From contig JADLAJ010000074.1 in assembly GCA_020848255.1 (NCBI GenBank), positions 1-41,147 of the forward strand: a DNA stretch of 41,147 nucleotides. The letters are read 5' to 3'. Position numbers and translations under genes: made by a program. Positions 5,886-40,831 of the stretch are shown piece after piece (the first letter of the stretch is position 1; every line of letters starts with the position of its first letter). The notes beneath the pieces are model-generated. The model had not been told where the DNA came from and did not search any database. It saw only the letters and a program-made list of their open reading frames with translations. This DNA comes from Chitinophagales bacterium (GTDB taxonomy: Bacteria > Bacteroidota > Bacteroidia > Chitinophagales > JADIYW01).

Positions 5886-6593
5886 ATGAACACAGTTATC
5901 AAGAAAAAAGTTTTGCTCGTAGAAGATGATCCTAATTTAGGCATGCTTTTACAGGAATATCTAAAGCATAAAAACTTTGAAGTAGAATTGAAGAGAGACG
6001 GTGTGGAAGGATTATTTGCTTTTCGTAAAAACACGTATGATATTATTTTGCTGGATGTGATGATGCCTAAAAAAGACGGGTTCACGGTTGCTGAAGAAAT
6101 CAGAAAAGATGATAAAGAAGTTCCGATTATTTTCCTGACAGCAAAATCACTGAAAGAAGACAAAATCAAGGGATTGACGATTGGTGCGGATGATTATATC
6201 ACCAAACCGTTCAGTATGGAAATTCTGGAATTGAAAATGAATGCAATTTTACGCAGAACGGAAAAACATGAAGTGCAAACAGCACTCGATGAATATACTG
6301 CCGGTGATTGTGTGCTGGATTACAAAAATCATAAACTGAAAGTGAAAGGCAACGAGATAAAATTAACGACTAAAGAAAATGAATTGCTTCGTTTGTTCTT
6401 CGAGAAGAAAAACCAGATTCTGGAAAGAGAACTGGCACTTAAACATGTCTGGCAGGACGACAGTTACTTCACTGCCCGCAGTATGGACGTGTTTATCTCT
6501 AAAATCAGAAAATACCTGAAAGATGACGAGCGTTTGCAAATCCTGAATATTCACGGACAAGGCTATAAACTGGTAGAAAACCAGATGGCTTAG
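5886..6593 (+). CDS. OmpR/PhoB-type response regulator (receiver + winged-helix)
   Basis: Track ORF 5793..6593 overlaps the kinase. The ATG at 5886 gives MNTVIKKKVLLVEDDP...LLDVMMPKKDGF...LTAK, followed by a Trans_reg_C-like C-terminus (LTTKENELLRLF...GYKL). Confidence 0.9.
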   Translation: MNTVIKKKVLLVEDDPNLGMLLQEYLKHKNFEVELKRDGVEGLFAFRKNTYDIILLDVMMPKKDGFTVAEEIRKDDKEVPIIFLTAKSLKEDKIKGLTIGADDYITKPFSMEILELKMNAILRRTEKHEVQTALDEYTAGDCVLDYKNHKLKVKGNEIKLTTKENELLRLFFEKKNQILERELALKHVWQDDSYFTARSMDVFISKIRKYLKDDERLQILNIHGQGYKLVENQMA

Positions 6594-18600: not shown

Positions 18601-19092
18601 GTAAATTTTAAAATCGATATTATCGTAAACGTTCTTGTATTTTAATACTTTGCATACCGGCACGTTCGATTTCCATTTAGATACATCACTTCCGATAAAG
18701 TAATTATTGTAGTAACTCTGTATTTTTTCCTGTTCGATTACAGGATTTATATTGGCGTTTAACCATTTTACTTTATAAGCATGTCCTTTAATAATTTTTT
18801 CATTGTTTTCTAAGTAATCAGGATTCGTTACTTTAGTATTGTTTACATCCAGATATTTAGGCTGCTTTTCGCCGTGCGCTTTATCGTGTAAACTTTCCTG
18901 AAATAAATAAGTAAGTGTATTGTTTTCCAGAAATAACCATCCGCCGTGTAAGTCAGCTTTGTATTTTACCGGTGATTCCCACTGTCCTGCATTCTGTACA
19001 AATTCAAGATTATTATTTTCATTTGATCTTGAATAGGAAAGAAAACTATTGCTTAAGAATAACAAAATTGCAAAAAATGTAAATTTATTCAT
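12634..19092 (-). CDS. Giant T9SS cargo/adhesin (2152 aa): SBBP-type beta-propeller repeats + PKD + 22 x 51-aa Cys-pair repeats + gliding-motility/CHU_C (type-B) C-terminal domain
   Basis: Signal peptide. SBBP-like motifs (YSTYLGGSSNE, GSTFFGGSGTDG, WSTYYGGSGADAAYS). PKD motif WYFGDGDSS...HTY..GTYT. C-terminal IPNAFTPNGDGVNDLF...DRWGNQVFE...GWDGSYKGQPA...YGYYF is the CHU_C/TIGR04131-type sorting domain. Confidence 0.9.
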   Translation of the reverse strand: MNKFTFFAILLFLSNSFLSYSRSNENNNLEFVQNAGQWESPVKYKADLHGGWLFLENNTLTYLFQESLHDKAHGEKQPKYLDVNNTKVTNPDYLENNEKIIKGHAYKVKWLNANINPVIEQEKIQSYYNNYFIGSDVSKWKSNVPVCKVLKYKNVYDNIDFKIYSEDQNFKSDYIVHKNGKVTDIQFKYDGVDDIAVLSDGRLKITTSINTVYELKPYSYQIINNQEKEVACSYSLKNNVLTFNITKYNKEYDLIIDPSLIFSTYSGSNADNWGSSSTNDAQGNMFLGGIALASGYPSTVGAFQTAFGGGSGSNLTDVVITKFNSTGSTRIYSTYLGGSSNELLQSLYCTQQNELIILSTTSSTNFPTSASGYDKTHNGGTSTSALLASISFPNGSDIAVTKLNAAGSALIGSTFFGGSGTDGLSLNATLVNNYGDDSRGDIAVDNSGNIYIVSTTTSTNIPGTTGKAQPTNSGSSDGVVAQFNSNLSALNWSTYYGGSGADAAYSLSLDAANNIFVCGGTLSNNLPGRTAGLNTAFIGGSADGYVAKLNPTATTVTAATYLGTSSFDESYIMDLDKNDNVYIFGQTLGTYPVTAGTYSNTGGKQFIHRLNNNLNATGYSTVFGTTNYQYVNISPTALLVDICSNVYAVGWGGGINFDDFANGGNTNNMPTTTDAYKSNTDGKDFYLINLGTNATSLKYATYFGEQGAGTEGDHVDGGTSRFDKNGVVYEAVCASCGGTDGFPTTTGAYSNTNNSSNCNMAGFKFKFDLPSLQITGLIGVPSLICAPQTLNFSYTTTTTPVTVKWYFGDGDSSILNSPAHTYLTAGTYTITLKVFDPTNCNPVDSFKTTINVLPKKTTNLVRVICQGESVTVGNQTFSNTGNFVVVLQSSQGCDSTVNLNLTVNPKKTTTLNREICQGQSVTVGSQTFNTPGTFTVTLQTSNFCDSVVTLNLVVNPTKTNTVNRTICQGQSVTVGTQTFNTNGTFVVNLLTSKLCDSIVTLNLTVNPTKTTQITRSICQGQSVTVGTQTFNTNGTFVVTLQTSERCDSVVTLNLTVNPVKTTNLVRSICQGQSFTIGNQTFSTSGNFSVTLQSSQLCDSVVNLNLTVTARIINNISRSICEGQSFTVGTKNYTQTGNYSDTLRSGAGCDSVVNLNLTVNPTKTTNLFRTICQGESVTVGTQTFNTNGVFTIRLTTTQTCDSIVTLNLTVNPTKTTTLTRVVCQGESVTVGNQTFNTSGSYTVTLKTSKLCDSTVTLNLTVNPVKTTNITRNICQGQSVTVGNQVFSSSGNYTVVLKTSANCDSTVNLNLTVTSRIINNITRVICQGESVTVGNSTYNQTGNFTDTLRSLAGCDSIVNLQLTVNPKKQTTLNRTICQGESVTVGNQTFNTTGSFTIPLQTSQFCDSTVTLNLLVNPKKQTTVNRTICQGESVTVGNQTFNATGSFTVTLQTSQLCDSVVTLNLTVNPVKTTNLTRAICEGESVTIGNQVFTATGNYSVVLKTSLFCDSTVNLNLTVNPKKATIITDTICQGDSIIVGTQVFSTTGTFVVSLLSSKNCDSTVTLNLFINPTKTINFPQVICLGDSVKIGNEVFKSGGNYSVVLQTSKGCDSIINLNLTVLDTTVNTFVTTICDGDSIKIGNEVFRFEGLYTVKLKSTFGCDSTIILDLRIKPTQTVNINQTICEGESYTVGNQSFSTPGLFSVVLQTSRGCDSIVNLDLKVNPSTRTNIFRIICQGESFTVGNEEFTESGNYAVTLQTQFGCDSVVNLDLQVNPIKLTELKESICRGQSISVGSQVFSESGQYTVNLQTSESCDSIVNLDLTVSEPVTNNISFKLCQGDAYSVGDSVYTKTGNYTNILEASSGCDSIVNLSLVVDENTATNLNKILCEGDSVTIGNQTFKISGIYQVVLENSNGCDSTVNLNLTVNSISTTSVTKNICSGENFIVGNETFTETGEYTIVLQNTTGCDSTVLLNLIVNDLPSIDATADQPIVNIGQQVQLGVLTSEALNYNWTPADIVSNPALQNPTAVLSQSTWFYVTATNRQTSCSFTDSVFVELNEVTCSKENIFIPNAFTPNGDGVNDLFIPRTSIILKSMKLIIIDRWGNQVFESTDISVGWDGSYKGQPATVDSYGYYFVGECSQGEKITIKGNVSLLR
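13159..16524 (-). repeat. 22 tandem 153-nt (51-aa) coding repeats
   Basis: I counted the units in the translation. Consensus is T.N..R.IC.G.S.TVGNQ.F...G.Y.V.L.....CDS.V.L.L.VNP.K. Adjacent units share about 50-nt stretches with 1-2 mismatches (for example around 15975-16025 and 16128-16178). Confidence 0.9.
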
Positions 19093-19224
19093 TGTTTATT
19101 GTTTTTTAATAGTTGTAAACGCTAAAGACGATTGTCGTTAACATTCAATAATTTTAAAAAAATACTAATAACTTGTAGGGAGATTATGGAAACTAGATTT
19201 TAAAAGTTTTATGGTATTTAAATG

Positions 19225-19232
19225 CAAATATA
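19225..19232 (-). promoter_or_regulatory. TAnnTTTG promoter-like motif upstream of the 2152-aa adhesin gene
   Basis: The minus strand reads tatatttg, about 130 nt upstream of the ATG at 19092. This is a motif match only. Confidence 0.25.
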
Positions 19233-19278
19233 GCAGTTTTGAACAGTATGTTAAAATTTTACAGAAAAAAATCTAAAT

Positions 19279-22200
19279 TTATCTTAATAAGGTCACATTT
19301 CCCTTGATATATATTTGTCCACCTTGTATACATTCACCCTTTAAATAGTAACCATACGCTTCAAATTGAGCAGGTTGTCCTTTGTAATTGCCATCCCAGC
19401 CATCAGTAACTGTATCAGTTTCAAATACTTTATGCCCCCAGCGGTCATATATTTCCAGATGCATTGTTTTCAGAATTGTGGTACGTATGTATAATTTATC
19501 ATTCACGCCGTCACCATTTGGTGTAAAAGCGTTTGGAATAAAAATATTCTCCTTAGTACAAGGCAGGAAATCACGCTCGATAAAAACAGAATCAATTGAA
19601 ATACATTGTGTATTCGGATTGGTGGCCGTTACCACAAACCAGGTAGGTGATGAGATAAAAGCTGTTGGATTTTGAATACTTACATTGCTGACTAAATCAG
19701 CTGGTGTCCAGTTGTATGATAAGGATTCTGTTGTTATAACATCTAATTGTATTTGTTGGTCTGGTAGCGCGGATGTTCTGTCAGAAACAGCATCGATTAC
19801 CGGCAACGGATTTACTGTTAAAGTCAGATTTACAGTACTGTCGCACCCTTCAGATGAAGTTAATCTGATAGCATAATTCCCTGCCTCGTTAAATGTCTGA
19901 TTACCTATAGTCACAGATTTCCCCTGACAAATTTCTGTTCTGATTGCAGAAGATTTTTTTGGTAAAACAGTTAATGATAAACTAACCAAACTGTCGCAAC
20001 CAGCTGAAGACGCCAATAAAATGGTATAGTTTCCTGAAGCCTTAAATACCTCTGTGTTAATGGTAACGCTATCACCTTCACAAATAATGCTGCTCACATT
20101 TTGTCTGGCAGTATCTAAAACCGTTAAGGATAAATTTACGGTACTGTCGCAGCCCGCTGTTGCTTTTAATCGAATAAGATAATCACCGGCCTCATTGAAA
20201 GACTGATTCCCCACAACATAATTTTGTCCTAAGCATATGGTTCTGCTGATATTCTCTATTAAAGTATCCCGTTCATTCAGATTCAGATTTACAATACTAT
20301 CACATCCACTAGAAGCCTGAAGCGTTACGGAATAATTTCCGGAAGTTGAAAAACTCTGATTTCCGATGGTAATAACTGTGCCTGTACATACAGTATAAGT
20401 CAATGTAGTGTTTTTGGTAGGGTTAACAGTAAGTGCAAGATTTACTATACTGTCGCATCTTTGCGCACTTTGTAAAGTAACGGAATAATTTCCTGAAGTG
20501 TAAAAAGTTTGACTGCCAACTGTCACAGAATCACCCTGGCAAATTGTTCTAGGTAAGTTGTTAGTTTTAATTGGATTTACGATTAGCGTGAGATTTACAA
20601 TACTATCACAGCTTTGTGCGCTTTGCAGGGTTACAGCATAATTTCCGGCAACTGAAAAAGTTTGATTTCCGATGGAAACCGATTGTCCCTGACATATGGT
20701 TCTGGTAATAGTGGTCGATTTTTTCGGATTTACTTTTAGTGTTAGATTAATGGTGGAATCACAACCTTTTGTGCTTTGAATTTTGATTGTAAAATTTCCC
20801 GAAGTTGAAAATGTTTGATTACCAACAGTAACTGATTGCCCCTCACAAATTGTTCTTGAAATATCAGCTGTTTTATTCGGATTGACAATCAGGTTTAAAT
20901 TGATAACAGAATCACAACCTGCATTGGAGCGCAGTGTATCAGAATAATTTCCTGTTTGAATATACGTGTGATTTCCTACGATTATACTTTGTCCCTGACA
21001 AATTTCTCTTGAAATATTATTTATAATTCTGTTAGTAACAGTAAGGTTTAATGTTACAATTGAATCGCAATTACCGGGTGTTTGAAAGGTTATATTAAAG
21101 GTGCCGCTGGTGGAGAAAGTTTGATTTCCAATGGTAACAGACTGCCCCTGGCAAATCGTTCTGTTAACTGTAGATGTTTTTCTTAATCCAACAGTTACCG
21201 TTAATGTGGTAGAATCCACAGGGTTACAGTTCTGTGGGTCTCTTAAAATAAATCGAACAGTGTAATTGCCGCCAACAGTATATGTATGTGATGGAAATTG
21301 AGTTGTTGATGTTATACCATCTCCAAAATCCCAAAAGTATTGTGTACCCGGCTGCGTAGCAGTGTAGGTGAAATTAACAGCTAATGGTGCGCATCCGCTG
21401 GGTGGATTTGCCGTTGCCGTAATTATCTGCAATCCGTTTAAGTCGAATCTGAATTTGAAACCAGCCATATTGCAATTGGAGGCATTGTTGTTGGGACCTG
21501 CAACACCAGAGGTAACAGGAAAAGAGTTCGATCCGCCACAGCTTGCACAAACCGCTTCGTATACAATTCCATTTTTATCAAATCTGCTGGTACCGCCGTC
21601 TACGTGGTCACCTACGCCGCCACTTTCACCAAAGTAAGTAGCGTATTTAAGTGTAGTGGCATTAGCACTTAAATTAATTAAATAAAAATCATTTCCATCC
21701 GTAATGCTTTTTAGTGCGTCATTAGTTACAGGCATATCAAAAGTATTTCCACTGTAATTAACATTATTACCACCCCATCCAACTGCATAAATATTACTGC
21801 ATACATCTACCAATAAAGCAGTTGGAGTGATATTTATGGTACTTGCGTTTACACTTCCAAAAACTGTAGAAAAAGAAGTAGTGTTTAAGGCATTGTTTAA
21901 TTTGTGAATAAACTGTGGAGCATTAGAATTTGAATACACACCTGATGTAACCGGATAAATACCTAAAGTTTGACCGAATACATAAATATTATCGCTGTTG
22001 TCTAAGTCAATAATGTACGCCTGATCGTAATCACCAGTTCCAAGATAGGTGGAAGCCAGAATACTGTTTCCGTTGTTGTCAAATTTTGCAATAAATCCGT
22101 CAGTGGTCCCACCTTTGTATGTAGTATTTAAACCATTTGCTCGGCCAGGTAAATTAGTACTGCCTGTTCCACCGCATATGAAAATATTATTATTCTTATC

Positions 22201-23670
22201 AAGCGCCATACTATATGATGCATCAGCCAGAGAGCCTCCAAAATAAGTTGCCCATGATAATGAAGAAAGATTAGAGTTGAATTTTGCCAGTAACCCATCA
22301 GAGGAACCGCCCCCAAAGCTGGCTTGTGCTTTTCCTGTTGTGTTTGGAATATTTGTAGAAGTTGTGGTGGAAGTAACATATATGTTTCCTGCATTATCCA
22401 GTGCAACATCACTTCTGGATTCATCCCCATAATTGAATGCAGTTGCATCATCTAAATTCGTACCGTCATTTCCGGAACCACCTAAAAAAGTAGAACCAAT
22501 TAAAGCAGAACCGGCAGCATTTAGTTTTGTAACTGCCAAATCGGAGCCATTGGGTAAATTAATATCATAGGCAATGAGAGGCGACCCTCCGTTAAACGTT
22601 CTGTCATAGGCATTTGCTGTTGTAGGAAAATCCGTAGAGCTGGTTGTCATAACAGCCACCAGTTCATTGGCAGGAGTACAGATTAAACTGGCTAATAATT
22701 CATTGGAACTACCACCTAAATAAGTAGAATATAATTTTGTTGTTCCATTGCTGCTGAATTTTGTAATGGCAATATCTGAAGGTTCGTTACCTGAACCACC
22801 GGCAAAACTTGTTTGAAAAGCACCGGTTGTAGCTGGATAGGAAGAGCCTAAGGCAATACCGCCCAAAAACATATTGCCTGCATTATCATGTGTAGCAGAA
22901 GAACCCCAGTTGTCTGAGAAACTTCCGGAATAAGTTGAAAACACTAAGGTTGGGTCAATTATTAAATCGGCATCTTTATTATATCCGTTGGGTAATTCAA
23001 AAGATAAATCAGAATTATTGAGTTTGTAATTACAAGCCACTTCTTTTTGTTCGCCATTAATAATTTGGTAAGCATAAGGCTTTAATTCATAAACGGTATT
23101 TATGGAAGTGGTAATTTTTAACTGTCCGTTTTCTTCTACTGCAATTGCATCCACACCATCATATCGAAATTTTAAATCCTGTACATTTCCGTTTTTGTGA
23201 ATGATGTAATCTGATTTCATCGTAGAGGCTTCACTGTATATTTTGAAATCAATATTTTGATAGATATTATTGTAATTAATGGTTTTGTAAATGCCAACTT
23301 TAGATTGCCATTTACGCTCGTTATTTCCGATAAAATAATTATTGTAATATGGTTGCTGGTCGCTTTCCGACACTTTCGAATCAATATTTGCATTCAGCCA
23401 TTTTATTTTATATGCATGACCTTTTACTACAGAGCTAATTTCTCCGGTTTTTTTTTCTTTTGCTGCATGAAGATGCGTGTTTTCAATAAATTTATAGGTT
23501 AATGCGTTTTTTTCCAGAAATACCCAGCCGCCATGTAAGTCAGCTTTGAATAATACAGGCGTTTCCCATTGTCCGTTATTTTTTACATAGTCAATTCTGC
23601 TGTCAATATTTGTTTTAGCAAAACAGAATATATTTAAAATGGTCAATAAAATTAAAAGCAACTTTTTCAT
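19279..23670 (-). CDS. Giant T9SS cargo/adhesin paralogue (1463 aa): SBBP repeats + PKD + 9 x 51-aa Cys-pair repeats + CHU_C (type-B) C-terminal domain
   Basis: Colinear with the 2152-aa protein over the N-terminal ~830 aa. Carries the same 51-aa repeat family. C-terminal IPNAFTPNGDGVNDKL...DRWGHKVFE...GWDGNYKGQPA. Confidence 0.9.
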   Translation of the reverse strand: MKKLLLILLTILNIFCFAKTNIDSRIDYVKNNGQWETPVLFKADLHGGWVFLEKNALTYKFIENTHLHAAKEKKTGEISSVVKGHAYKIKWLNANIDSKVSESDQQPYYNNYFIGNNERKWQSKVGIYKTINYNNIYQNIDFKIYSEASTMKSDYIIHKNGNVQDLKFRYDGVDAIAVEENGQLKITTSINTVYELKPYAYQIINGEQKEVACNYKLNNSDLSFELPNGYNKDADLIIDPTLVFSTYSGSFSDNWGSSATHDNAGNMFLGGIALGSSYPATTGAFQTSFAGGSGNEPSDIAITKFSSNGTTKLYSTYLGGSSNELLASLICTPANELVAVMTTSSTDFPTTANAYDRTFNGGSPLIAYDINLPNGSDLAVTKLNAAGSALIGSTFLGGSGNDGTNLDDATAFNYGDESRSDVALDNAGNIYVTSTTTSTNIPNTTGKAQASFGGGSSDGLLAKFNSNLSSLSWATYFGGSLADASYSMALDKNNNIFICGGTGSTNLPGRANGLNTTYKGGTTDGFIAKFDNNGNSILASTYLGTGDYDQAYIIDLDNSDNIYVFGQTLGIYPVTSGVYSNSNAPQFIHKLNNALNTTSFSTVFGSVNASTINITPTALLVDVCSNIYAVGWGGNNVNYSGNTFDMPVTNDALKSITDGNDFYLINLSANATTLKYATYFGESGGVGDHVDGGTSRFDKNGIVYEAVCASCGGSNSFPVTSGVAGPNNNASNCNMAGFKFRFDLNGLQIITATANPPSGCAPLAVNFTYTATQPGTQYFWDFGDGITSTTQFPSHTYTVGGNYTVRFILRDPQNCNPVDSTTLTVTVGLRKTSTVNRTICQGQSVTIGNQTFSTSGTFNITFQTPGNCDSIVTLNLTVTNRIINNISREICQGQSIIVGNHTYIQTGNYSDTLRSNAGCDSVINLNLIVNPNKTADISRTICEGQSVTVGNQTFSTSGNFTIKIQSTKGCDSTINLTLKVNPKKSTTITRTICQGQSVSIGNQTFSVAGNYAVTLQSAQSCDSIVNLTLIVNPIKTNNLPRTICQGDSVTVGSQTFYTSGNYSVTLQSAQRCDSIVNLALTVNPTKNTTLTYTVCTGTVITIGNQSFSTSGNYSVTLQASSGCDSIVNLNLNERDTLIENISRTICLGQNYVVGNQSFNEAGDYLIRLKATAGCDSTVNLSLTVLDTARQNVSSIICEGDSVTINTEVFKASGNYTILLASSAGCDSLVSLSLTVLPKKSSAIRTEICQGKSVTIGNQTFNEAGNYAIRLTSSEGCDSTVNLTLTVNPLPVIDAVSDRTSALPDQQIQLDVITTESLSYNWTPADLVSNVSIQNPTAFISSPTWFVVTATNPNTQCISIDSVFIERDFLPCTKENIFIPNAFTPNGDGVNDKLYIRTTILKTMHLEIYDRWGHKVFETDTVTDGWDGNYKGQPAQFEAYGYYLKGECIQGGQIYIKGNVTLLR
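19801..21177 (-). repeat. 9 tandem 153-nt (51-aa) coding repeats of the same family as 13159-16524
   Basis: Unit boundaries were counted from the translation. The first unit starts at TSTVNRTICQGQS and the last ends at LTLTVNPLP. Confidence 0.85.
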
Positions 23671-23837
23671 ACACAGCTATATTTTACAATGGTAATTGTT
23701 TGCAATTTTAGAATAATAAATTTCAGGGCTTATGAATCAGAAAATAGTCCTTACACCGACTTCATGTACGAAGATAATAGAATTAACAGTTTAAAAAAAG
23801 AGTTCTTAGACTAAAAATTAAGAAAGTAGCAGTTTTT

Positions 23838-26800
23838 TTACCTGAGTAAAGTTACATTTCCTTTCAGTGAAATCTTTTCACCCTGAAGGCATTCGCCGCT
23901 AAAGTAATATCCATATGCATCAAATGGTGCAGGCTGTCCTTTATATGAACCATTCCATCCATCTGTAATATTATCAGTTTCAAATACTTTATGTCCCCAT
24001 CGATCGTATACTTCCAGGTGCATTGATTTAAGAGTGGCAGTTCTCACTTTAAATGTATCGTTCACCCCATCTCCGTTTGGAGAAAATGCGTTAGGAATAT
24101 AAATGGAAGAAGGTATACACTCATATTGAATTACCTGAACCGTTACAGTATCCTGTGTACGGCATTGATTATTGTTAGTAACAACAACTGTATACAATGA
24201 GGTTTGTGCAGGCGAGGAGACAGGATTGTAAATGCTTATATTGGATACTAAATCTGCTGGTGTCCAGTTGTAGGAATAGCCTTGCCCTTGCGTAGCAGAA
24301 AGTTGTACCTGCTCTCCGCGATAGATGATTGGTTTGTCTACAGAGGCATCAATACTCGGCGGAATGTTAAGTGTAATTTGAAGGCTGTCGTTTACATCGC
24401 AGCCATATAAATTATCAATATGAAAATATACTGTTTGTGATGAAGATGGTGTAATTTCAACGGATGAAATATTGTTCGTTTCAATAGTATCATTATTTAG
24501 ATACCAGATAATGCCATACTGAGAAGCCGTTTGTACATTTAAATTTAATGTTGCTTTTTCACCTTCACAAACAGCTGCATTTTGACGGATATATTTTATT
24601 GACCGGTTTCCTAATTGTATACTATCCATAACCGAACAGAATTTATATTTCGCTCTGAAGTAATACCATTTTTCACCCTGAGGTTGTGTAATTTGCAAAG
24701 TTAGATTAGTTCCAATCAGATGAGATAAATCCCTGCTGTCAAACCATTCTGTTTCAGTAGAAAAATCAACAAAAGCATATGCAAAGACTGTATCCGAACA
24801 AAAATTATTAGGGGATGATAAACTAACAGATGGCAAACTATCGTTATAGAAAACAGTAATACTGTCCGTGATTTCACAATTTCCTGAAAAAGCTTTCAAA
24901 TAGTATGTTTTTTCAGCTGAAGTCTGAGGTATTTCAACATTTTGAGAGATAGCGAAAATATCAGTAAATGCAGCATTGTAAGACCATTTTACGGAATCAT
25001 AATTTGTAACAGTTGCATTAATTCTTACCGAATCGGCACATACAAAGAAAGAATCATTTAATGAGATTTGAGGAATGTTTGTCTGTGTTCTGACAAGAAT
25101 ACTATCTGTTACAGAACAAAAACCATAAGATGCTTTTACGTAATACTTTTGAACAGCATTTATTTGAGTGGTGTTTAATGTTGACAAATTAGAAAGTATC
25201 GGTATAAAATTAGGATTTGCAGACCATATAATATAATCTGCATTGCTGATGGTTGCATTTATAAGAATATTATTACTGCAAAAAAACAAACTGTCCGCTA
25301 ATGAAATAGCTGGTGCTGTGTTGTTGAAATTGACAACAATACTATCCGTAACAAAACAATCTCTGTAAAATGCTTTAATATAGTAGGTTTGTCTTGGTTG
25401 TTCCTGTGATACAAAAATAGTTTGTGATGTTCCGATAATTCCTGTAAAATCAGGAGAAGCAGACCAGATTAATGAAGTGAATTTTCTTACCGTTGCAGAT
25501 ATCTGTATAGTGCTTCCGCCGCAAATAACTATAGAGTCATTTAATGAAATTAGAGGCAAAGTGTCTTGAACAGTTACTCTTATACTATCCGTATTGTAAC
25601 AAGTTTTGTAGTTGGCCTTGATGTAATATTTTACAGTCTTTGGTACCTGTATTGTATTGTAAGTATAAGTGTTAGATAAAACAGGAACAAAGGATGGAGA
25701 CGTTGACCATACAATATTATCACTGTAATTAACTGAAACATTTAAAGCCACCTGGTTGGAGCATTGTAACAGATTATCAGCTAAAGTAATTTGTGGAACT
25801 GTATCATTGTAAACAGCAACAATACTGTCAATAGCTTCACAGCCCTGTGCCGTAATTTTGACATAATATTTTTGTGTCGCAACAGTTTGACGAATGCTGA
25901 TATTTGCAGTAGTTCCGATAACAGGAGAGAAAATGTTGGAGGTTGACCAGATAACGGTTTGCCCTGGCGACAAAGGCACGCTTAAGCGTATAGAATCATT
26001 GCATACTCTTAAGGTATCTGTTGCATTTATCTGAACCGTATTGATGGTTTTTACCTGCACGCTATCCTTTTGAACACAGGTGTCCCCGTTAGATAAGAGC
26101 GTTTTTATGGTAACATAATAAGTAATATTTGTATTGGTGCTGGTTGTAGGGTTTTGAATATTAGGATTATTTAATCCGGTTGAAGGAGACCATGAAAAAA
26201 TATTATTTCCACTAATTTCTAAAGATAGTTGCGCAGCTCCGGTGTTCGTGCATTTTGTTAGAATACGGTTTAAAGTATACGGTGCTTTTGGAAATAATTT
26301 TATTGTTTTGCTCAGTGTGGAAGTACACCCGTTGGAAGAGGTGACGGTAAGTGTTGTTGTAAATGCAGTATCTGTCCCGTTGTATAAAACTACAGGATTC
26401 TGCAGTATGGAAGAGTCACCATTAGAGAAATTCCATTTCCAAGCAATTACATTTAAAGAATCGGTGCTTCTGTCTGTAAATCTTATCTGGTCATTTCTGG
26501 ATAAGCAGCTTGCAACATCCGTAATAAAATCAGCCTGTATTTTTTTGTATTGAATTGAGATAAGCTGTGTGTACTGCGCCAGGCAGGTATTGGTAATACT
26601 GTTTAAACTGATGAGCGTGACGGTATATTTCCCGGTATCTGCATAGGTATGAGTTGGATTTGCTGCTACAGAAGAATCTCCATCGCCGAAATACCATTTA
26701 TAATCAGTGGCACCACTGCTCTGATTTTGAAAACTCACCGTAAAGTCATTACATTGAATACTGGGTGCAAAGAAACTGCTGACCACCTGTAAATTACAAT

Positions 26801-27686
26801 CTATAATATTAAATTGAAAATCACGTGTAGTATGTGTCAGTAATTCGCCATTTCTGTATTCATCCACACAAACGCCCACCACAAACTGTCCCGTAGTGTT
26901 TGGTGTCCCGGTGAGCAATCCTGTTACCGGATTAATTCTTAAAGGAACTCCTCCCAGCATATCATTTTCACTGTATGCCGAATCCCAAACGACATTCTCA
27001 AAAGGAGGAGTTTCCTCAATGTAATAATTCAAGGGGTCGTCTGGGAATGCACCGGAATAGGGCGTACATAAGCTATATACCAGTGAGTCGCCATCCGCAT
27101 CAATCGCACTATTATCATAGATTATTGGCTTGTTTACGCAAATATATACAGGCGGATAATTTACAAAATAAGGAGTTGTGTTGATAGTATTTTGACCGTT
27201 AAAATTGGATGGAGGAATATTTATAGTATAAGTTGCTCCCCAGTCCATAACCCCAAATCCTCTGGAATCATAGGTTAAGTTAAGGATGGTATTGTTTCTG
27301 CAGCATCGCTGATAATAGATGGTGTACCCCAAATCATTCGGTGGCAAAATAAGCGTATCCCTGTATCTCGTCCAGTTCACACAAACAGGAGTCTCAATTC
27401 TTGCGCAGGCATCAGGAAGTCCCGGATCTAAAATACTGTCAAAAGGTTTATTTGGGAAACTATATGTTTCGGAAACACCATCCCAGATTCTGATGATGGC
27501 AGGATCATCCAATGGTGGAACTCCATTTATACAATCCCTGTATACATACAATTCTATTTCATACTTGTCGTTTCCCAGGTATTTGTAATTCATCACACCG
27601 CCAACAATATGTGTAGCTTTTGCCGATGAAAAGCAAGCGCAAATAAAAAATATTATAATTAGTTTGATGTAAAAATTTTTAACCAT
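23838..27686 (-). CDS. T9SS cargo protein (1282 aa from the ATG at 27686, 1294 aa from the TTG at 27722): distinct N-terminal domain + 2 PKD + ~7 x 80-aa modules + CHU_C (type-B) C-terminal domain
   Basis: Signal peptide MVKNFYIKLIIIFFICACFSSAKA. PKD motifs YKWYFGDGDSS...HTYADTGKYTV and WKWNFSNGDSS. C-terminal IPNAFSPNGDGVNDTF...DRWGHKVFE...GWNGSYKGQPA. Confidence 0.88.
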   Translation of the reverse strand: MVKNFYIKLIIIFFICACFSSAKATHIVGGVMNYKYLGNDKYEIELYVYRDCINGVPPLDDPAIIRIWDGVSETYSFPNKPFDSILDPGLPDACARIETPVCVNWTRYRDTLILPPNDLGYTIYYQRCCRNNTILNLTYDSRGFGVMDWGATYTINIPPSNFNGQNTINTTPYFVNYPPVYICVNKPIIYDNSAIDADGDSLVYSLCTPYSGAFPDDPLNYYIEETPPFENVVWDSAYSENDMLGGVPLRINPVTGLLTGTPNTTGQFVVGVCVDEYRNGELLTHTTRDFQFNIIDCNLQVVSSFFAPSIQCNDFTVSFQNQSSGATDYKWYFGDGDSSVAANPTHTYADTGKYTVTLISLNSITNTCLAQYTQLISIQYKKIQADFITDVASCLSRNDQIRFTDRSTDSLNVIAWKWNFSNGDSSILQNPVVLYNGTDTAFTTTLTVTSSNGCTSTLSKTIKLFPKAPYTLNRILTKCTNTGAAQLSLEISGNNIFSWSPSTGLNNPNIQNPTTSTNTNITYYVTIKTLLSNGDTCVQKDSVQVKTINTVQINATDTLRVCNDSIRLSVPLSPGQTVIWSTSNIFSPVIGTTANISIRQTVATQKYYVKITAQGCEAIDSIVAVYNDTVPQITLADNLLQCSNQVALNVSVNYSDNIVWSTSPSFVPVLSNTYTYNTIQVPKTVKYYIKANYKTCYNTDSIRVTVQDTLPLISLNDSIVICGGSTIQISATVRKFTSLIWSASPDFTGIIGTSQTIFVSQEQPRQTYYIKAFYRDCFVTDSIVVNFNNTAPAISLADSLFFCSNNILINATISNADYIIWSANPNFIPILSNLSTLNTTQINAVQKYYVKASYGFCSVTDSILVRTQTNIPQISLNDSFFVCADSVRINATVTNYDSVKWSYNAAFTDIFAISQNVEIPQTSAEKTYYLKAFSGNCEITDSITVFYNDSLPSVSLSSPNNFCSDTVFAYAFVDFSTETEWFDSRDLSHLIGTNLTLQITQPQGEKWYYFRAKYKFCSVMDSIQLGNRSIKYIRQNAAVCEGEKATLNLNVQTASQYGIIWYLNNDTIETNNISSVEITPSSSQTVYFHIDNLYGCDVNDSLQITLNIPPSIDASVDKPIIYRGEQVQLSATQGQGYSYNWTPADLVSNISIYNPVSSPAQTSLYTVVVTNNNQCRTQDTVTVQVIQYECIPSSIYIPNAFSPNGDGVNDTFKVRTATLKSMHLEVYDRWGHKVFETDNITDGWNGSYKGQPAPFDAYGYYFSGECLQGEKISLKGNVTLLR
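24348..26027 (-). repeat. About seven divergent ~80-aa (~240-nt) tandem modules
   Basis: Each module has the form ..C....(I/L)...V......(I/V)WS.(S/N)..F..(I/L).......(I/V).Q.....YY(I/V)KA....C...DSI.V........(I/V)(S/T)L. The last two modules are degenerate. Confidence 0.7.
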
Positions 27687-34566: not shown

Positions 34567-34606
34567 TACACAATCGTAAATAGAATAATACTGAATTGAT
34601 GATTAT

Positions 34607-35446
34607 TTATTGATAATATGTATATTCTTGATAAGAACGAACTATATTTGAATTGTAGTTCGTTAATATTAATGTACTATTTACTATATTTTCATTCATA
34701 GTATAAAAATATTTCGAGTATGAATTATTTGAGTAATTAGAACTGTCAATTAAAAATGTATTAGGTTTTACAATATAATAACCATCTATTCCTAAATAAT
34801 AAACAACATCATTTAAAACACTACCACCACCATGGTCTGTACATGGTAATTGATTAGGAATCATATTGTTATTTACTATGTTAGTAAATGTAAATGAAAC
34901 AGTATCAGCTTTATTGACATATATTCCTAAAAATTCTCTCCATTTAGAGGAATAACCATTACAATTATACACATCATATTTAAAGTTATAAAATGAAATA
35001 TTCGTTTGTAAAAAAATACCAATATCGAATATTGAGTCTGTTTTATCATTTTTTAAAAAGATTACAGTAGCTAATTCTTGAGAACCACTCAATGTATCAA
35101 TCTTTATAATTGATGTAATTTGCTTACCGATTGTAGAAATTAAATATTGCTTACCTTCAAAATTATTATAAAAATAAACGGTGTTGTTTGCTCTTTCAAT
35201 ATTTATATAACTATTGAAATTTGTGTCAATACCTTGAAATCTACCATGTAAATCTATAGATATTAAGAGACCTGTAGTTGTATCATAATTAAAATAATAC
35301 CGGCTAATAGTATTAGAGGAATCGCTCTCGTAGTACGTCAATGATTTTATTTTATTATGAAGGACGTTTTGTTTATTTTGATTATTACATTCCTTTTTGC
35401 ACGAAAGTGCAAAAAGGAATGATAGAATTATTAATAACTTTTTCAT
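34607..35446 (-). CDS. Hypothetical lipoprotein (very AT-rich gene)
   Basis: Signal/lipobox MKKLLIILSFLFALSC. Asn/Tyr/Ile-rich. Sampled GC is about 18% (11/60 nt at 34681-34740). Confidence 0.55.
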   Translation of the reverse strand: MKKLLIILSFLFALSCKKECNNQNKQNVLHNKIKSLTYYESDSSNTISRYYFNYDTTTGLLISIDLHGRFQGIDTNFNSYINIERANNTVYFYNNFEGKQYLISTIGKQITSIIKIDTLSGSQELATVIFLKNDKTDSIFDIGIFLQTNISFYNFKYDVYNCNGYSSKWREFLGIYVNKADTVSFTFTNIVNNNMIPNQLPCTDHGGGSVLNDVVYYLGIDGYYIVKPNTFLIDSSNYSNNSYSKYFYTMNENIVNSTLILTNYNSNIVRSYQEYTYYQ

Positions 35447-35452
35447 GTTTTT

Positions 35453-36094
35453 TTATTTATGACCGTTAAACCAAGTAAGAATATCAGGTCGCGTTTGTGC
35501 ATTGTTTGATACATCATGATTTGCGTTAGTATATAGTTTAATGATATGTTTGCTGGTTGTTGTTGCATATGTTGCAGATGCTGGTATAGCTGGTCTGGTT
35601 GTGCTACTGTAAGTTCCAATTAAACCACCTGTGGAAGCAAGTTTTGTATTCATCGTGCTTGTCGCTTTACTGTATGGTACTAACCAATCATCAGTTCCAT
35701 GTATTATAAATGTTGGAACAATGCGAGATGTATCTAAAGCAACACATGGGCTCACATTATTAAACTCTGTAGTTACCGACGGAGCAGTAATTATTTGGCG
35801 AATACAACTTTGTGCCAATCTAAATGTGTTTGTAATTCTTTTGTTTGTATTATATGATGCTGTAAAAGGAGCAACTGCGGGAATTAACCAATTCAATCTT
35901 ATTCCTGCAACTGTGCAAGTTAATGGATTAACGAATCCCGTTATTGTCAAATTTACATTTGGATCGTTTGGATCATAAATACCGTAAAATGGAAAATGTG
36001 TTAGTGTTGTTGTATTTGGATTAGAAACAATTAAATCTGTTCCACATGTAAATGGAAATGGTGGTAATTTCATCCAATTAGTTAATTGGTTCAT
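35453..36094 (-). CDS. Hypothetical protein with only the C-terminal alpha/beta-hydrolase-like motifs (possibly truncated)
   Basis: FIIHGTDDWLVP (acid-residue motif) and TNANHD (His motif) are present. I cannot find a GxSxG nucleophile or a signal peptide. The upstream neighbour ends only 31 nt away. Confidence 0.4.
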   Translation of the reverse strand: MNQLTNWMKLPPFPFTCGTDLIVSNPNTTTLTHFPFYGIYDPNDPNVNLTITGFVNPLTCTVAGIRLNWLIPAVAPFTASYNTNKRITNTFRLAQSCIRQIITAPSVTTEFNNVSPCVALDTSRIVPTFIIHGTDDWLVPYSKATSTMNTKLASTGGLIGTYSSTTRPAIPASATYATTTSKHIIKLYTNANHDVSNNAQTRPDILTWFNGHK

Positions 36095-36125: not shown

Positions 36126-36929
36126 TTACGGATTCCTGAATAACTGAATCGTGTAATCCAGTAATTTTTGGTCGCCGTAGGGGCCGTGTCCCGGCACTAC
36201 AAATTTTACCGGCGGATAGGCCTTTTTCACCTTTTCCACAGTGGCCGACCAGGCAGCTACATTTGCATCACCGAGGTAGCCTTTGCTGGCATCCAGTGTT
36301 TTTATCAGACAACCGCCAAACAAAACATCATCTTCTGGAAAGTAGCCCACCACATTGTCTCTGGTATGTCCTTCGCCGAAAAAAGTAGCCGTAACGAAAG
36401 TGTTGCCGAGGTTCAAGAGCAAGGAATCGCTGAAGCTGTTTTTGGGCACTGCCATTTTGTTTTCTTTGGCGTATTCCACGGTTTTGCTGTTGGCATAAGA
36501 AGGAATCTTATTGTCATCAAAGGCTTGGAGGCCGCCGAGGCAATCGTCGTGGAAATGCGTGGGAATGACGGCCTTGATGCTGCAGTGCAGTTTTTCCTGT
36601 ATCCATTTTATAAGTACAGCCGAAGTTTTATCGGTAGTAGGTGTGTCGAAGATAATGATTTCAGTGCCCTTGCGCACGATGAGGCCGTTGCAGGGAACAT
36701 TGCCGAATTCATCGGTTTGTTTATAAGAGGTATGTACAAAAGTATTTTGGGTGATTTGCGTAATGATTAGCTGTTTGGATTTGTACACCTTTTTGGGGTT
36801 GAAGACTTCTTTTTGTTGCGCACTGCCGTTCAGATAGCACATTAAGAACATAAAAACCAACACTAACTGAAAAACGTATTTCGGGATTTTTGATGTTGTG
36901 GTTTTTACAAAAGAGTTGGTGTGGTTCAT
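36126..36929 (-). CDS. Subclass B1 metallo-beta-lactamase
   Basis: Signal peptide plus the complete B1 zinc-ligand set in the right order: HFHDD (H116/H118/D120), GEGHTRDN (H196), GGCLIK (C221), VPGHG (H263). Confidence 0.88.
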   Translation of the reverse strand: MNHTNSFVKTTTSKIPKYVFQLVLVFMFLMCYLNGSAQQKEVFNPKKVYKSKQLIITQITQNTFVHTSYKQTDEFGNVPCNGLIVRKGTEIIIFDTPTTDKTSAVLIKWIQEKLHCSIKAVIPTHFHDDCLGGLQAFDDNKIPSYANSKTVEYAKENKMAVPKNSFSDSLLLNLGNTFVTATFFGEGHTRDNVVGYFPEDDVLFGGCLIKTLDASKGYLGDANVAAWSATVEKVKKAYPPVKFVVPGHGPYGDQKLLDYTIQLFRNP

Positions 36930-37051
36930 TGCTTGTTTTTTTTGTTTTTTGAGTGATAAATGTACAAACTATTTTTGCAAAAACCGTTCGAGACCGGGTG
37001 ATTTAGTACACATGAGTTGTCTTTTGGGAAACAAGCAAAAGGATGAAGACT

Positions 37052-37120
37052 TGTGCTGTAAGCACACAATATTGGTAGAAATAAAATAGTAAACGGAAAT
37101 GGTGCTGTAGGCACCATATA
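37052..37120. repeat. REP-like 69-nt repeat, left copy (two short hairpins)
   Basis: tgtgctgtaagcacacaatattggtagaaataaaatagtaaacggaaatggtgctgtaggcaccatata. The hairpins are gtgc-tgtaa-gcac and ggtgc-tgtag-gcacc. Confidence 0.8.
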
Positions 37121-37130
37121 TCAACGGAAT

Positions 37131-37592
37131 TTAAATCATTTCTTTGAAAATGTATTGTTCATCATATTCAACATCAAATTTTTTCAGGAAATCCATATAT
37201 TCATCTCTGAATGTCTTTTTTGAATGATGTTGTTCCTGATTTTCAATATATGCAATCACATCTTTTACCTGAGATTTTCCATAGGAAAATGCACCGTAAC
37301 CTTCCTGCCATTCAAATTTTCCTTTTATAAATCCTTTTTGATTAATCCATTTTGAAGAACTTCCTTTTATGTCTTGCATTAAATCAGAGATGGATTGCGT
37401 GGGACGCATTCCGATTAAAATATGAATATGATCCGACATTCCGTTTATGGCAATCAACTTGTGTTTATTGTTTTGTACAATACCTGTCATATACCTGTAT
37501 AACTCATCTTTCCAGGAGGAATGAATGATTGCATCTCTGAATTTTACTGCAAAAACAAATTGAATGTGTATTTGTGTGTAGGTATTTGCCAT
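37131..37592 (-). CDS. Y1 HUH transposase, IS200/IS605-like or REP-associated tyrosine transposase (RAYT)-like
   Basis: 153 aa. HUH motif in SDHIHILIG and the catalytic Tyr motif YIENQ (YxxxQ). There is no tnpB-like second gene. Confidence 0.85.
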   Translation of the reverse strand: MANTYTQIHIQFVFAVKFRDAIIHSSWKDELYRYMTGIVQNNKHKLIAINGMSDHIHILIGMRPTQSISDLMQDIKGSSSKWINQKGFIKGKFEWQEGYGAFSYGKSQVKDVIAYIENQEQHHSKKTFRDEYMDFLKKFDVEYDEQYIFKEMI

Positions 37593-37915: not shown

Positions 37916-37984
37916 TGTGCTGTAAGCACAATATATTGGTAGGAAAAAATAGTAAACGGAAATGGTGCCATAGGCACCCAATAG
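37916..37984. repeat. REP-like 69-nt repeat, right copy (direct orientation, roughly 85-90% identical to 37052-37120 by eye)
   Basis: tgtgctgtaagcacaatatattggtaggaaaaaatagtaaacggaaatggtgccataggcacccaata. Confidence 0.8.
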
Positions 37985-38083
37985 TATTATTTATGCTTTT
38001 CAAACGACACAGCATAGTTTTATAAAAAAATAATCAAGCACAAGCACGCAAATTAAAGGCTGCATGTTTGCGCAAGATGGGGG

Positions 38084-38626
38084 TTAATGTTGAAATGCTC
38101 CAGTTCCTTGGTTATAGGTTAAACTGTCTAAATAAGTAAGAATATTTATTAAACCCGGATATTCTTTATTAAAGTCACTTAAAATGTCCTTGGAATTAGT
38201 GCTATGCCAATCTGCAGGGTCATGGGTAGCATGAACATTTCTATGTCTATTCCTAACAATCTCATTTAAGAATGTGATGTCTTTATTTGTAAATCTACCT
38301 GCATTATAACCTAGGACAATGTCGAAGTTAAGAAGTCTCAAAACTTCTGCTCGGATATTTGAGTATTCAGGGTTATTAATTTTTTTAAGTTCTGATTCTA
38401 AAGCTGTCAATTGTTGAGCATTGTCACCTCGCATTCTTGCACAATTGTATATTATAAGCTTTAGGCTTCCTTCAAGAAACCTAGTTGCTAGAGCATAAAT
38501 AGTTATGTTCAATAAAGATTGAACTCTTATTGACCCGTGGCTGTCAGCTTTGACAGAAAGTGCAACTGCTACATTTCTATCTAAGTCAACTTTAAAAGTT
38601 TCTATGTCTGGACAATTAAAGGGCAT
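38084..38626 (-). CDS. HEPN-like protein (putative RNase effector)
   Basis: 180 aa and apparently helical. It contains NEIVRNRHRNVHATH, that is R-x4-H (RHRNVH), positioned as in HEPN domains. It starts 4 nt after the DUF262 stop codon. Confidence 0.6.
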   Translation of the reverse strand: MPFNCPDIETFKVDLDRNVAVALSVKADSHGSIRVQSLLNITIYALATRFLEGSLKLIIYNCARMRGDNAQQLTALESELKKINNPEYSNIRAEVLRLLNFDIVLGYNAGRFTNKDITFLNEIVRNRHRNVHATHDPADWHSTNSKDILSDFNKEYPGLINILTYLDSLTYNQGTGAFQH

Positions 38627-38630
38627 AACC

Positions 38631-39722
38631 TTACTTTAAATTTAGAAAGTAATTTCTTGCAAGGTCTATTCTACCTTTAACGCTGGTTTCGCCAGATGTT
38701 CCAGAAGTTACATGTTTTTTATAATCATCGTCGTGAATAAGTCTTTGGTAGTTTTCTTTAATGTTTTTAAGTTCTTTACCAGCTATAATCGTTTGAGCAA
38801 TAGCAACCATTAGAGAGTCACAAATTGATTTGTTTATTGAACGTGTTGTTTTAAAAGCCCGTTCGCCTATTTCTGTATAAATTATATTTACTGTTTTTTC
38901 AAAAATCGTTTGGTTTGATTCAATAAACGAATTATTATTCTTGTTGTCTTTCTGATAGTTAGACAGGAATAATTTCATTGAAGGTGCGTAGTTTTGAACA
39001 CCGTGTAACAGTGCAAAAAACCTTAATACTAACTCTGCATCTCTTAATCGTTTATCAGGTATGTTTTTATCAAGTAATTTTCTCCAATTAGTGTTTTTAT
39101 TTAAATCAAGAAGTTGTTTGTTGAATATCCCAGTGTAAACACAATTTCTGATTTCTTGGTCAGTCAGAGGCATGCCACCAGTGTTTAATCTGTGAAATAA
39201 GTCATGTACAACTTCCGGTCGAGAATTGATGTCCTCGATTATTGTTGTGTTTAAAACAGCATTTCTAATTCGCTTTTTAAATTTATCATCTAATTCTGCA
39301 TAGGTCTGATTATTCCAAGCTCTGTCTTTTAAGTTTCTCAAAGAGAAAATTGTTTCATTCTCGTCACTAATAAACTTACCTGTCATAAAGTAATAAGCAG
39401 ATTTTAATCTTTGTTGTCCATCTATTACAATATAATTCTCATCTTCTTTACTTTTACCTAGAAAAATACTTGGAATAGGTAGTCCAATGATAAGTGAATC
39501 AATAAACAAACTTGCCCTGTTTATATCCCAAACAAAATCTCTTTGGAATTCAGGTTTCAAATTGATTTCTTCATTATCAACTTTTAGCTTCAATACTTCA
39601 ACTGTATTTGCTACGTTATATGAAACAATTTTTTGAAGTTCTTCAATAGAAGACTCTTCTACTTCTTCCATTTCTTCGTTTTCAAATTCAAGCTCGTCTG
39701 TGTTTTTTAATTCGTCAGTCAT
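38631..39722 (-). CDS. DUF262 (ParB-like/GmrSD N-terminal) domain protein lacking a DUF1524/His-Me nuclease domain
   Basis: PEFQRDFVWD, IVIDGQQRL and FHRLNTGGMPLTDQEIRN are the hallmark DUF262 motifs. The acidic N-terminus and the ~170-aa C-terminal region show no nuclease motif that I can see. Confidence 0.8.
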   Translation of the reverse strand: MTDELKNTDELEFENEEMEEVEESSIEELQKIVSYNVANTVEVLKLKVDNEEINLKPEFQRDFVWDINRASLFIDSLIIGLPIPSIFLGKSKEDENYIVIDGQQRLKSAYYFMTGKFISDENETIFSLRNLKDRAWNNQTYAELDDKFKKRIRNAVLNTTIIEDINSRPEVVHDLFHRLNTGGMPLTDQEIRNCVYTGIFNKQLLDLNKNTNWRKLLDKNIPDKRLRDAELVLRFFALLHGVQNYAPSMKLFLSNYQKDNKNNNSFIESNQTIFEKTVNIIYTEIGERAFKTTRSINKSICDSLMVAIAQTIIAGKELKNIKENYQRLIHDDDYKKHVTSGTSGETSVKGRIDLARNYFLNLK

Positions 39723-39898
39723 ATTGTTTTATTTTTTGAATATTTAATTTATTCTTTGTTATTTTATCTTTATGTGTAACTTATTTAGATATTCTGTAAA
39801 GTTGCACGATACGAACTAACAGAAGATTTTATATGCGCAACTTTAGAGTATATTATTCAAATATACTTTTATATTATTAAAAATTAAAATGTAATCGT

Positions 39899-40831
39899 TT
39901 ATTTTAATTCCAAAAACCTCAAATTTCTTTTCAACCCCTCATACTTCGTTCTCTTCACCGCAGAGTTCCGGAAGAGTTCATTAAAAACGTCTTCGGTAAT
40001 TTCCTGCCATTCGCGGCGGTTCATGCTAAGCAGCTTTGGGTTTGGTGTAAATTTGGGTTCATTATGTACTTTGGAAAAACGGTTCCAGGGGCATACGTCC
40101 TGGCAAACATCGCAGCCAAACATCCAGTCGTCAAATTTATCTTTATAGCTTGTGGGTATCGCGTCTTTCAACTCTATTGTAAAATAGGAAATGCATTTGC
40201 TACCGTCCACCACTTTGTTTTCTACAATGGCGCCGGTAGGGCAGGCGTCCATGCAGGCGGTGCAGGTGCCGCAGTGGTCGGTGGCAAAAGGTGCGTCGTA
40301 TGCCAGATCGGCATCCACAATAATTTCTGCTAAAAAGAAAAAAGAGCCTTGAGTTTTATTGATTAACAAGGAATGTTTGCCCACCCAGCCTATGCCGGCC
40401 TTGCTGGCCCAGGCACGTTCCATCACGGGCGCGGAATCTACAAAACATCTGCCGTGTATCTCACCAATTTCCTGCTGCATGTTGCGCAATAAGATTTTCA
40501 GTTTGTCTTTTACCACGTGGTGGTAGTCTTCACCGTAGGCATATTTGGACAGTTTCGATGCCTCACTGTTTTGTTTTTGGTCGGTGTAGTAGTTGTAGCT
40601 AAGAGAGATAACGGATTTGGCGCCGGGTACCAGTATTCTCGGGTCAAGGCGCATGTCGAAATGGTTTTCCAGGTAGTGCATCTCGCCCTGATAGTTGCGT
40701 TTCAGCCATTCTTCCAATTTGGGTGCTTCTTCTTCCAGAAATTCAGCTTTGGCAATTCCGCAGTGGCTGAAGCCAAGTTCTGTAGCCCATTGTTTTATTT
40801 GTTTGCTATATTTTTCTTTGTCAGCCAGCAC
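39899..40831 (-). CDS. queG: Epoxyqueuosine reductase
   Basis: GTG start. Two ferredoxin-type clusters ([23 protein letters not shown]) and N-terminal similarity to QueG ([13 protein letters not shown]). Confidence 0.88.

Follow-up and report, generated by a model that had tools for sequence, protein, structure and literature searches.

What is a bacterium equipped with when a DUF262 protein that lacks a nuclease domain is followed, only four nucleotides downstream, by a small HEPN-like protein? The question is raised by two adjacent genes, here called A and B, on the 41,147-nucleotide (nt) contig JADLAJ010000074.1 of a Chitinophagales bacterium (assembly GCA_020848255.1); the whole of this stretch is referred to below as the window. 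An initial annotation, made from the letters of the DNA, read the pair as a DUF262 sensor/NTPase joined to a separately encoded HEPN RNase, with a role in defence. This reading was found to be well supported, the individual roles of the two proteins being assigned by analogy. Quite probably, the locus encodes an anti-phage module of two genes that belongs to the DUF262/ParB plus RiboL-PSP-type HEPN class, of which PD-T4-2 from Escherichia coli is the validated example. The initial annotation knew of no experimental characterisation of such an arrangement, and in this it was mistaken: the arrangement is already known and validated as defence, and the copy described here is a divergent further member. 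The pair consists of the following parts.

38631-39722, minus strand: gene A, a DUF262/ParB-fold protein of the NsnA / PD-T4-2_A type, 363 amino acids (aa) (open reading frame (ORF) list, Pfam, PADLOC, AlphaFold2 (AF2) model).
39135-39578, minus strand: DUF262 domain (ParB/Srx-fold NTPase) of A, aa 49-196 (Pfam and invariant columns).
38634-39134, minus strand: all-helical C-terminal domain of A, aa 197-363 (helices 199-359 in the AF2 model).
38627-38630, minus strand: spacer GGTT, 4 nt, from the stop codon of A to the start codon of B (sequence).
38084-38626, minus strand: gene B, 180 aa, all-helical, assigned to a divergent RiboL-PSP branch of HEPN proteins, putative RNase effector (ORF list, homologues, profiles, AF2 model).
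38231-38248, minus strand: codons of the Rx4H motif R127-H128-R129-N130-V131-H132 of B, putative catalytic site (sequence and conservation).

A and B are real genes, since searches for homologues returned 1394 clusters for A and 139 for B. Together they span 1639 nt. The two ORFs, the gap between them and the motifs quoted for them in the initial annotation are all present, and the junction reads TAA-GGTT-ATG, which is exactly 4 nt. Most relatives show a 1-nt overlap between the A stop codon and the B start codon (for example 4928-6001 followed by 6001-6543; ORF coordinates of L001-L011).

The first protein of the pair carries PEFQRDFVWD (aa 57-66), IDGQQRL (aa 100-106) and FHRLNTGGMPLTDQE (aa 176-190). 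Pfam detected GmrSD_N/DUF262 at aa 49-196 (2.6e-28) and neither DUF1524/His-Me nor any other recognised nuclease domain in A, with aa 197-363 left without a match, which agrees with the claim that A is a DUF262 protein without a His-Me finger. Among 31 homologues, P57, F59, Q60, R61, F63-D66, D101-R105, F176 and R178-G183 are invariant, corresponding to the motifs PxFQRxFVWD, DGQQR and FxRLNTGG. The PADLOC hidden Markov models (HMMs) were scanned with individual proteins. The top match of A was NsnA (1.9e-69, model positions 21-379 of 385), and PD-T4-2_A was matched at 1.9e-62 (model positions 7-361 of 363); both alignments are full length and include the C-terminal domain of A. Six HEPN-paired DUF262 proteins were tested against PD-T4-2_A, and A gave the highest score. 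The HEPN-paired DUF262 proteins from plasmids and phages scored higher with NsnA than with PD-T4-2_A, just as A did, and the NsnA model is therefore unable to discriminate between the Menshen system, to which NsnA belongs, and PD-T4-2. The AF2 model of A (predicted local distance difference test (pLDDT) 86.2, predicted template modelling score (pTM) 0.82) has an alpha/beta N-terminal half and an all-helical C-terminal half. In the PDB, its fold is matched best by BrxU (7p9k); next come SspE and the CTP-binding ParB/Noc/KorB proteins. BrxU was also the sole PDB sequence-profile match of A, which covers just the first 60 residues of the BrxU chain. Based on the full-length PADLOC matches, the AF2 model and the fold matches to BrxU, SspE and ParB, A is a ParB/DUF262-fold NTPase with a helical domain and without a nuclease domain. 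A domain termed ParBDB has been proposed as the DNA-binding domain of NsnA, DndB, GmrSD and SspE (PMC12065111). The helical C-terminal domain of A sits at the ParBDB position and by analogy probably binds DNA.

The initial annotation suggested checking whether the two genes are neighbours in other genomes. A genome-collection scan with the B alignment yielded a sample of 19 loci, and in 19 out of 19 an A homologue lies directly upstream of B on the same strand. The loci span four phyla: Bacteroidota (Flavobacteriaceae, Mucilaginibacter, Hymenobacter, Bacteroides and others), Bacillota (Clostridia, Paenibacillus and Fictibacillus), Spirochaetota (Leptospira) and Pseudomonadota (Alteromonas and an alphaproteobacterium). 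No third gene is conserved across the 19 loci. The identities of the A and B homologues to the window proteins co-vary (Spearman 0.90, p 9e-7), which indicates that A and B travel as a unit. The pair is in this sense adjacent, co-directional and conserved. Integrases, group II intron reverse transcriptases, an OLD-family nuclease or conjugative-transposon genes turned up in about half of the neighbourhoods that were sampled in other genomes. Two copies appear damaged: at L018 4855-6435, several reading frames each hold part of A, and B is matched only in part (41% identity), and at L019 4927-6201, a frameshift splits A, and the contig stops before B is complete. Pseudogenes or errors of assembly may account for both.

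The same architecture was also found on mobile elements by tblastn with A, namely on IncX1 and small E. coli/Salmonella plasmids, a Hymenobacter plasmid, a P2-like coliphage and an Akkermansia prophage; tblastn with B against 72,556 plasmids gave no match. The HEPN partners encoded by these elements match PF18735 at 5e-18 to 8.5e-13 and PF18737 at 7.6e-18. In the P2-like Peduovirus P24B2 (L034, 140-2015), the DUF262 protein is paired with a MAE_28990-type HEPN protein of 239 aa, and in the Akkermansia phage Chambord (L035, 1267-4077), with a RiboL-PSP-type HEPN protein of 178 aa; both phages are temperate, and both pairs lie beside a DNA methyltransferase gene. HEPN partners have evidently been swapped among related DUF262 proteins. 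The E. coli plasmid pLR-27_3 (L020) is only 3.9 kb long, and its coding content is limited to the DUF262 and HEPN proteins, an antitoxin of the VbhA family and a replication protein, while in IncX1 plasmids of E. coli/Salmonella (including p573-5, L021), the pair comes directly after the replication initiator gene. These contexts hint at a plasmid-maintenance or exclusion role for DUF262-HEPN pairs.

The identity of B was deduced from its conserved residues and from intermediate relatives. The segment NEIVRNRHRNVHATH (aa 121-135) holds the Rx4H motif. In an alignment of 34 diverse homologues that reaches down to 50% identity, N126, R127, H128, N130 and H132 do not vary, and once distant relatives of B and the HEPN partners from plasmids and phages are aligned, R127 and H132 are the sole invariant columns. 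PF18735 (HEPN_RiboL-PSP) is weakly matched by 20 of the 34 homologues (best 4.6e-4), and a few match other HEPN models. A profile of the B family reached only 16 clusters (50% identity) in a collection of 1.84 billion representatives. The distant clusters P0129-P0134 were reached at E 6e-18 to 5e-6, and these are individually above the Pfam gathering cutoff for HEPN_RiboL-PSP. Four of them (P0129, P0130, P0131 and P0133) are encoded immediately after a DUF262 gene; the DUF262 neighbour has 359-363 aa in three cases, and that of P0131 is a 238-aa call on a short contig. One of the four adjoins an integrase and one adjoins a restriction-modification system. When the B family was compared by hhalign with these distant relatives plus three plasmid partners, the match was at 99.3% (E 1.7e-20); it extends across 161 columns and superposes the Rx4H motifs. 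An HMM built from the B family and the intermediates recovered only the Hymenobacter partner (30.5 bits) and placed the two E. coli plasmid partners above all decoys (11.8 and 10.6 bits). The AF2 model of B is all-helical (pLDDT 85.8, pTM 0.82). Its top matches in the PDB are mostly HEPN toxins or other HEPN-family proteins, among them HepT/MntA (7ae6, 7ae2, 7bxo, 6m6w), SO_3166 (5yep), 1ylm, 1wwp and 1jog, and the top viral match in BFVD is a MAE_28990/18760-like HEPN protein. Taken together, the intermediates and the catalytic motif lead to the conclusion that B, whose Rx4-6H motif is conserved, represents a divergent branch within the RiboL-PSP HEPN family. This places B in the HEPN superfamily with a conserved Rx4H, as first proposed. 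The B family forms its own narrow HEPN subfamily, which is not covered by the Pfam, PADLOC and NCBIfam models.

The closest known system is PD-T4-2. Vassallo et al. (2022) list it in their Table S1 as 'DUF262, HEPN', with 1540 nt and two ORFs from E. coli ECOR65, the second ORF being without a protein ID (PMC9519451). PD-T4-2 protects E. coli K-12 against T4, and its deletion from the native ECOR65 strain restored T4 plaquing; HHpred places PD-T4-2B in HEPN_RiboL-PSP at 97.8% (their Table S3, PMC9519451). Both loci have two co-directional genes, the first for a nuclease-less DUF262 protein of ~360 aa and the second for a small HEPN protein of the RiboL-PSP family, they are of similar size (1540 nt vs 1639 nt here), and A matches the PD-T4-2_A model over its full length. 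They differ in that B has no match to the PADLOC PD-T4-2_B model, lies below the Pfam HEPN cutoffs and belongs to its own narrow subfamily, and in that the copy in the window is chromosomal with a housekeeping context, its host being an uncultured bacterium that is probably Bacteroidota-like, judging by the taxa of the closest homologues. The PD-T4-2_B model was found to miss the HEPN partners of the IncX1 plasmid, the Hymenobacter plasmid and the P2-like phage, and to reach no better than 4e-4 on those of the Akkermansia phage and of the small E. coli plasmid (L020). Since it misses or barely detects all five of the plasmid and phage partners tested, the model is narrow, and PADLOC-type pipelines would probably miss the locus described here.

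The neighbourhood itself was noticed earlier. Anantharaman et al. (2013) reported "RiboL-PSP-HEPN" in an operon with ParB and "MAE_28990" in an operon with a ParB nuclease (PMC3710099), so the initial annotation was right that HEPN surveys had noted HEPN/ParB neighbourhoods. That class shares its gene neighbourhood with the present pair and was predicted computationally to act in defence or genomic conflict (PMC3710099). This work was comparative-genomic only, and the B subfamily escapes the Pfam models derived from it. A 2025 study of Menshen places PD-T4-2 among the DUF262-centred systems (PMC12065111). Menshen (NsnABC; Millman 2022; PMC12065111) resembles the pair in that A is of the NsnA type, with ParB-DUF262 and a helical C-terminal domain. 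NsnA is proposed to be a DNA sensor, and the effector is usually an RNase (PMC12065111). The difference is that Menshen requires the ABC ATPase NsnB and the inPIN-effector NsnC, whereas the RNase of the present pair would couple directly to the DUF262 protein.

A mechanism can be proposed along these lines, in which the defence function is taken from homology to PD-T4-2 and the roles of A as sensor, of B as effector and of RNA as target are taken from analogy. A would act as the sensor and switch, its ParB-fold NTPase (with intact DGQQR) and helical domain recognising invading, possibly modified, phage DNA. B would be kept inactive until licensed by A, and a B dimer would form a composite Rx4H RNase site. 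Active B may then cleave RNA (tRNA or mRNA), which would halt the production of phage, whether or not the host cell dies. A comparable event is found in DARNA (PD-T7-3), where an HEPN defence protein is activated by a phage nucleic-acid cue and cleaves tRNA; DARNA and ApeA, unlike the present pair, are single-protein systems and have different C-terminal domains. It is more tentatively put forward that the B family is a distinct HEPN subfamily and that A senses phage DNA and licenses the RNase without an ATPase transducer, which would amount to a minimal two-component ParB-switch immunity. This stronger proposal is conceivable but falls short of being probable.

Several observations weigh against assigning the pair to PD-T4-2-like defence. 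As a single sequence, B matched no Pfam, PADLOC or NCBIfam model. Of the HMM checks suggested initially, those on A turned out as expected (DUF262 and no DUF1524), but B alone gave no HEPN match. With PADLOC PD-T4-2_B, B gave no match at E<=1, nor did any of the 34 homologues at E<=10. The comparison of the B family by hhalign with only the five Pfam-validated plasmid and phage HEPN partners was not significant (E 0.19), and for this reason the HEPN assignment of B rests on the intermediates and the motif. The HMM that combines the B family with the intermediates picks up only three of these five partners, two of them at the low scores given above, and misses two. The B profile was likewise not significant against single plasmid HEPN sequences by hhalign, and gave a chance match only against PDB sequences. 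The structural check had a similarly divided outcome: the model is all-helical and the Foldseek list is rich in HEPN proteins, but all the matches in the PDB and BFVD are below significance (E 0.05-2, template modelling (TM) score 0.34-0.58). PD-T4-2B is likened to B through their shared family assignment (HEPN_RiboL-PSP). No mechanistic study of PD-T4-2 was found in the literature, and with no mechanism published, the sensor/effector model is drawn by analogy from GmrSD, BrxU and SspE and from the logic proposed for Menshen.

The genomic surroundings of this copy also count against a defence assignment. A location in a defence island of this genome was considered and rejected, as the neighbours are housekeeping genes and a RAYT element; in other genomes, about half of the neighbours sampled are mobile-element or defence genes. 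The initial annotation also called the pair AT-rich. This holds, but only mildly, with a GC content of 31-34% and a GC content at third codon positions (GC3) of 0.24, against a window mean GC of 35.8% and a GC3 of 0.27-0.41 for the other window genes. The contrast drawn with queG was overstated, since queG is itself a GC-rich outlier. A strongly foreign composition was therefore rejected for the pair.

The alternative that survives best is a toxin-antitoxin or addiction module, in which B would be an HEPN RNase toxin and A its neutraliser, the two stabilising mobile elements or plasmids rather than sensing phage. It is considered unlikely. The tight coupling of A and B fits such a module, as do the position of the DUF262-HEPN pair beside the replication gene on IncX1 plasmids and the 3.9-kb E. 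coli plasmid that carries little beyond the pair, the VbhA antitoxin gene and the replication gene. However, A is twice the size of B and has an intact set of NTPase motifs, unlike a simple antitoxin, and the sole tested relative, PD-T4-2, was isolated and validated as phage defence. The HEPN-MNT toxins (HepT-MntA) are the closest solved folds to B (sub-threshold) and share with it a small helical HEPN protein with Rx4H, but their partner is an MNT nucleotidyltransferase, whereas the partner here is a DUF262 protein. No nucleotidyltransferase domain of the MNT type is present in the pair, nor was such a domain found in the neighbouring genes, and HEPN-MNT was rejected as an assignment. The two functions, toxin-antitoxin and abortive infection, can moreover coexist.

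Less probable still, and in our view rather doubtful, is a DNA-targeting system that resembles type IV restriction, in which A or an A-B complex would cut or nick modified phage DNA and B would be a non-catalytic or nucleic-acid-binding accessory. The best structural and sequence relatives of A are indeed BrxU/GmrSD and SspE, with which it shares the DUF262 NTPase domain and DGQQR, and BrxU is its best PDB match by profile as well as by fold. T-even phages have modified cytosines. PD-T4-2 comes from a selection on T4, and protection by the T4-selected systems, taken as a group, generally extended to T2 and T6 (Vassallo 2022, PMC9519451). In addition, Anantharaman et al. (2013) treat ParB/DUF262 as a DNase domain (PMC3710099). 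However, GmrSD, BrxU and SspE each carry a DUF1524 His-Me DNase or nickase domain within one polypeptide, whereas A is devoid of DUF1524/His-Me or any other recognised nuclease domain, has an all-helical C-terminal half and is partnered by an HEPN protein; membership of the GmrSD/BrxU/SspE group was rejected on these grounds. The Rx4H motif of B is kept invariant in all relatives, which favours a catalytic HEPN site, and characterised HEPN proteins cleave RNA at this site.

A remnant of Menshen that has lost NsnB and NsnC and is followed by an unrelated small gene is very improbable and effectively refuted by synteny, for although NsnA is the top PADLOC match of A (1.9e-69), that model fails to separate Menshen from HEPN-paired DUF262 proteins, no ABC-ATPase/DUF3696 or NsnC-like gene was found nearby (B is followed by non-coding DNA and the Y1_Tnp gene), and B follows A in 19 of 19 loci with nothing else conserved.

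With the assignment to the PD-T4-2-like defence class retained, the setting of the pair in the window can be described. As initially stated, the pair lies between queG and a Y1_Tnp/IS200-like (RAYT) gene. The order queG - A - B - Y1_Tnp - metallo-β-lactamase (MBL)-fold gene is common to six related contigs, including the metagenome-assembled genome GCA_964269645.1, and the wider flanks consist of housekeeping genes (ABC-F, ADH, RF3 and a thioesterase). Two flanking elements may bear on the expression of the pair.

39723-39898, minus strand: queG-A intergenic region, 176 nt, GC 19% (sequence and composition).
38045-38066, minus strand: candidate terminator hairpin, 18 nt past the stop codon of B, 7-pair stem, weak T tail, low confidence (consensus scan).

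The promoter of the pair presumably lies within the queG-A intergenic region. A scan for the sigma-70 consensus showed no enrichment over shuffled sequences (12 found vs 13.3 expected) and did not locate it. The same region contains a 17-nt inverted repeat (39789-39805 / 39837-39853, 88% complementary, 31-nt loop), which could be a terminator of queG or an operator for the pair. Rfam at gathering thresholds returned zero RNA families across the whole window.

The neighbourhood of the pair in this genome is plastic, as is apparent from the RAYT gene with its REP-like repeats and from a 1.5-kb insertion that is absent from related contigs. The RAYT gene (37131-37592, minus strand; Y1_Tnp/IS200-like, Pfam 3.5e-31) lies between two direct copies of a ~68-nt unit (37052-37120 and 37916-37983), which are ~88% identical. 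Each unit contains two short palindromic hairpins, TGTGCTGTAAGCACA and GGTGCyrTAGGCACC, and the whole looks like a REP/BIME-type arrangement. The insertion is a segment of 1,518 nt (34567-36084), 2 kb from the pair, that is absent from five contigs (L023-L027) otherwise 95-97% identical, in which the MBL-fold gene and a 497-aa gene are ~40-80 nt apart. This strain-specific indel contains two very AT-rich ORFs of 279 aa and 213 aa (GC3 0.18-0.19), neither of which has a significant Pfam match; the 279-aa product looks lipoprotein-like by its N-terminal sequence.

The strongest compositional outliers in the window are queG (39899-40831, GC3 0.56) and the MBL-fold gene (36126-36929, GC3 0.54), and these two bracket the AT-rich stretch formed by the pair and the RAYT gene. 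The MBL-fold gene (36126-37124; L023 9502-10500) is called as 332 aa in four related contigs, and is represented in the window and in L026 by ORFs of 63 aa and 267 aa. The split is either a frameshift or stop polymorphism, or the result of a gene call over-extended upstream of the likely true start. Further away, three giant ORFs of 2152, 1463 and 1282 aa follow in a row on the minus strand (12634-27686).

This copy adds no principle beyond PD-T4-2. Its value lies in the finding that current models (PADLOC PD-T4-2_B and the Pfam HEPN families) leave an entire branch of DUF262-HEPN modules undetected. This branch is found chiefly in Bacteroidota, with further members in Bacillota, Spirochaetota and Pseudomonadota. 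The B-family alignment could seed a new annotation model. As a compact pair with candidate catalytic residues in both proteins (DGQQR in A, R127/H132 in B), it is a reasonable system for studying the control of an RNase by a ParB-fold NTPase. If A does license B directly, without an ATPase transducer, the pair would be a tractable model for signalling from a DUF262 NTPase to an effector, and PD-T4-2-like systems would prove to be systematically under-counted outside Proteobacteria.

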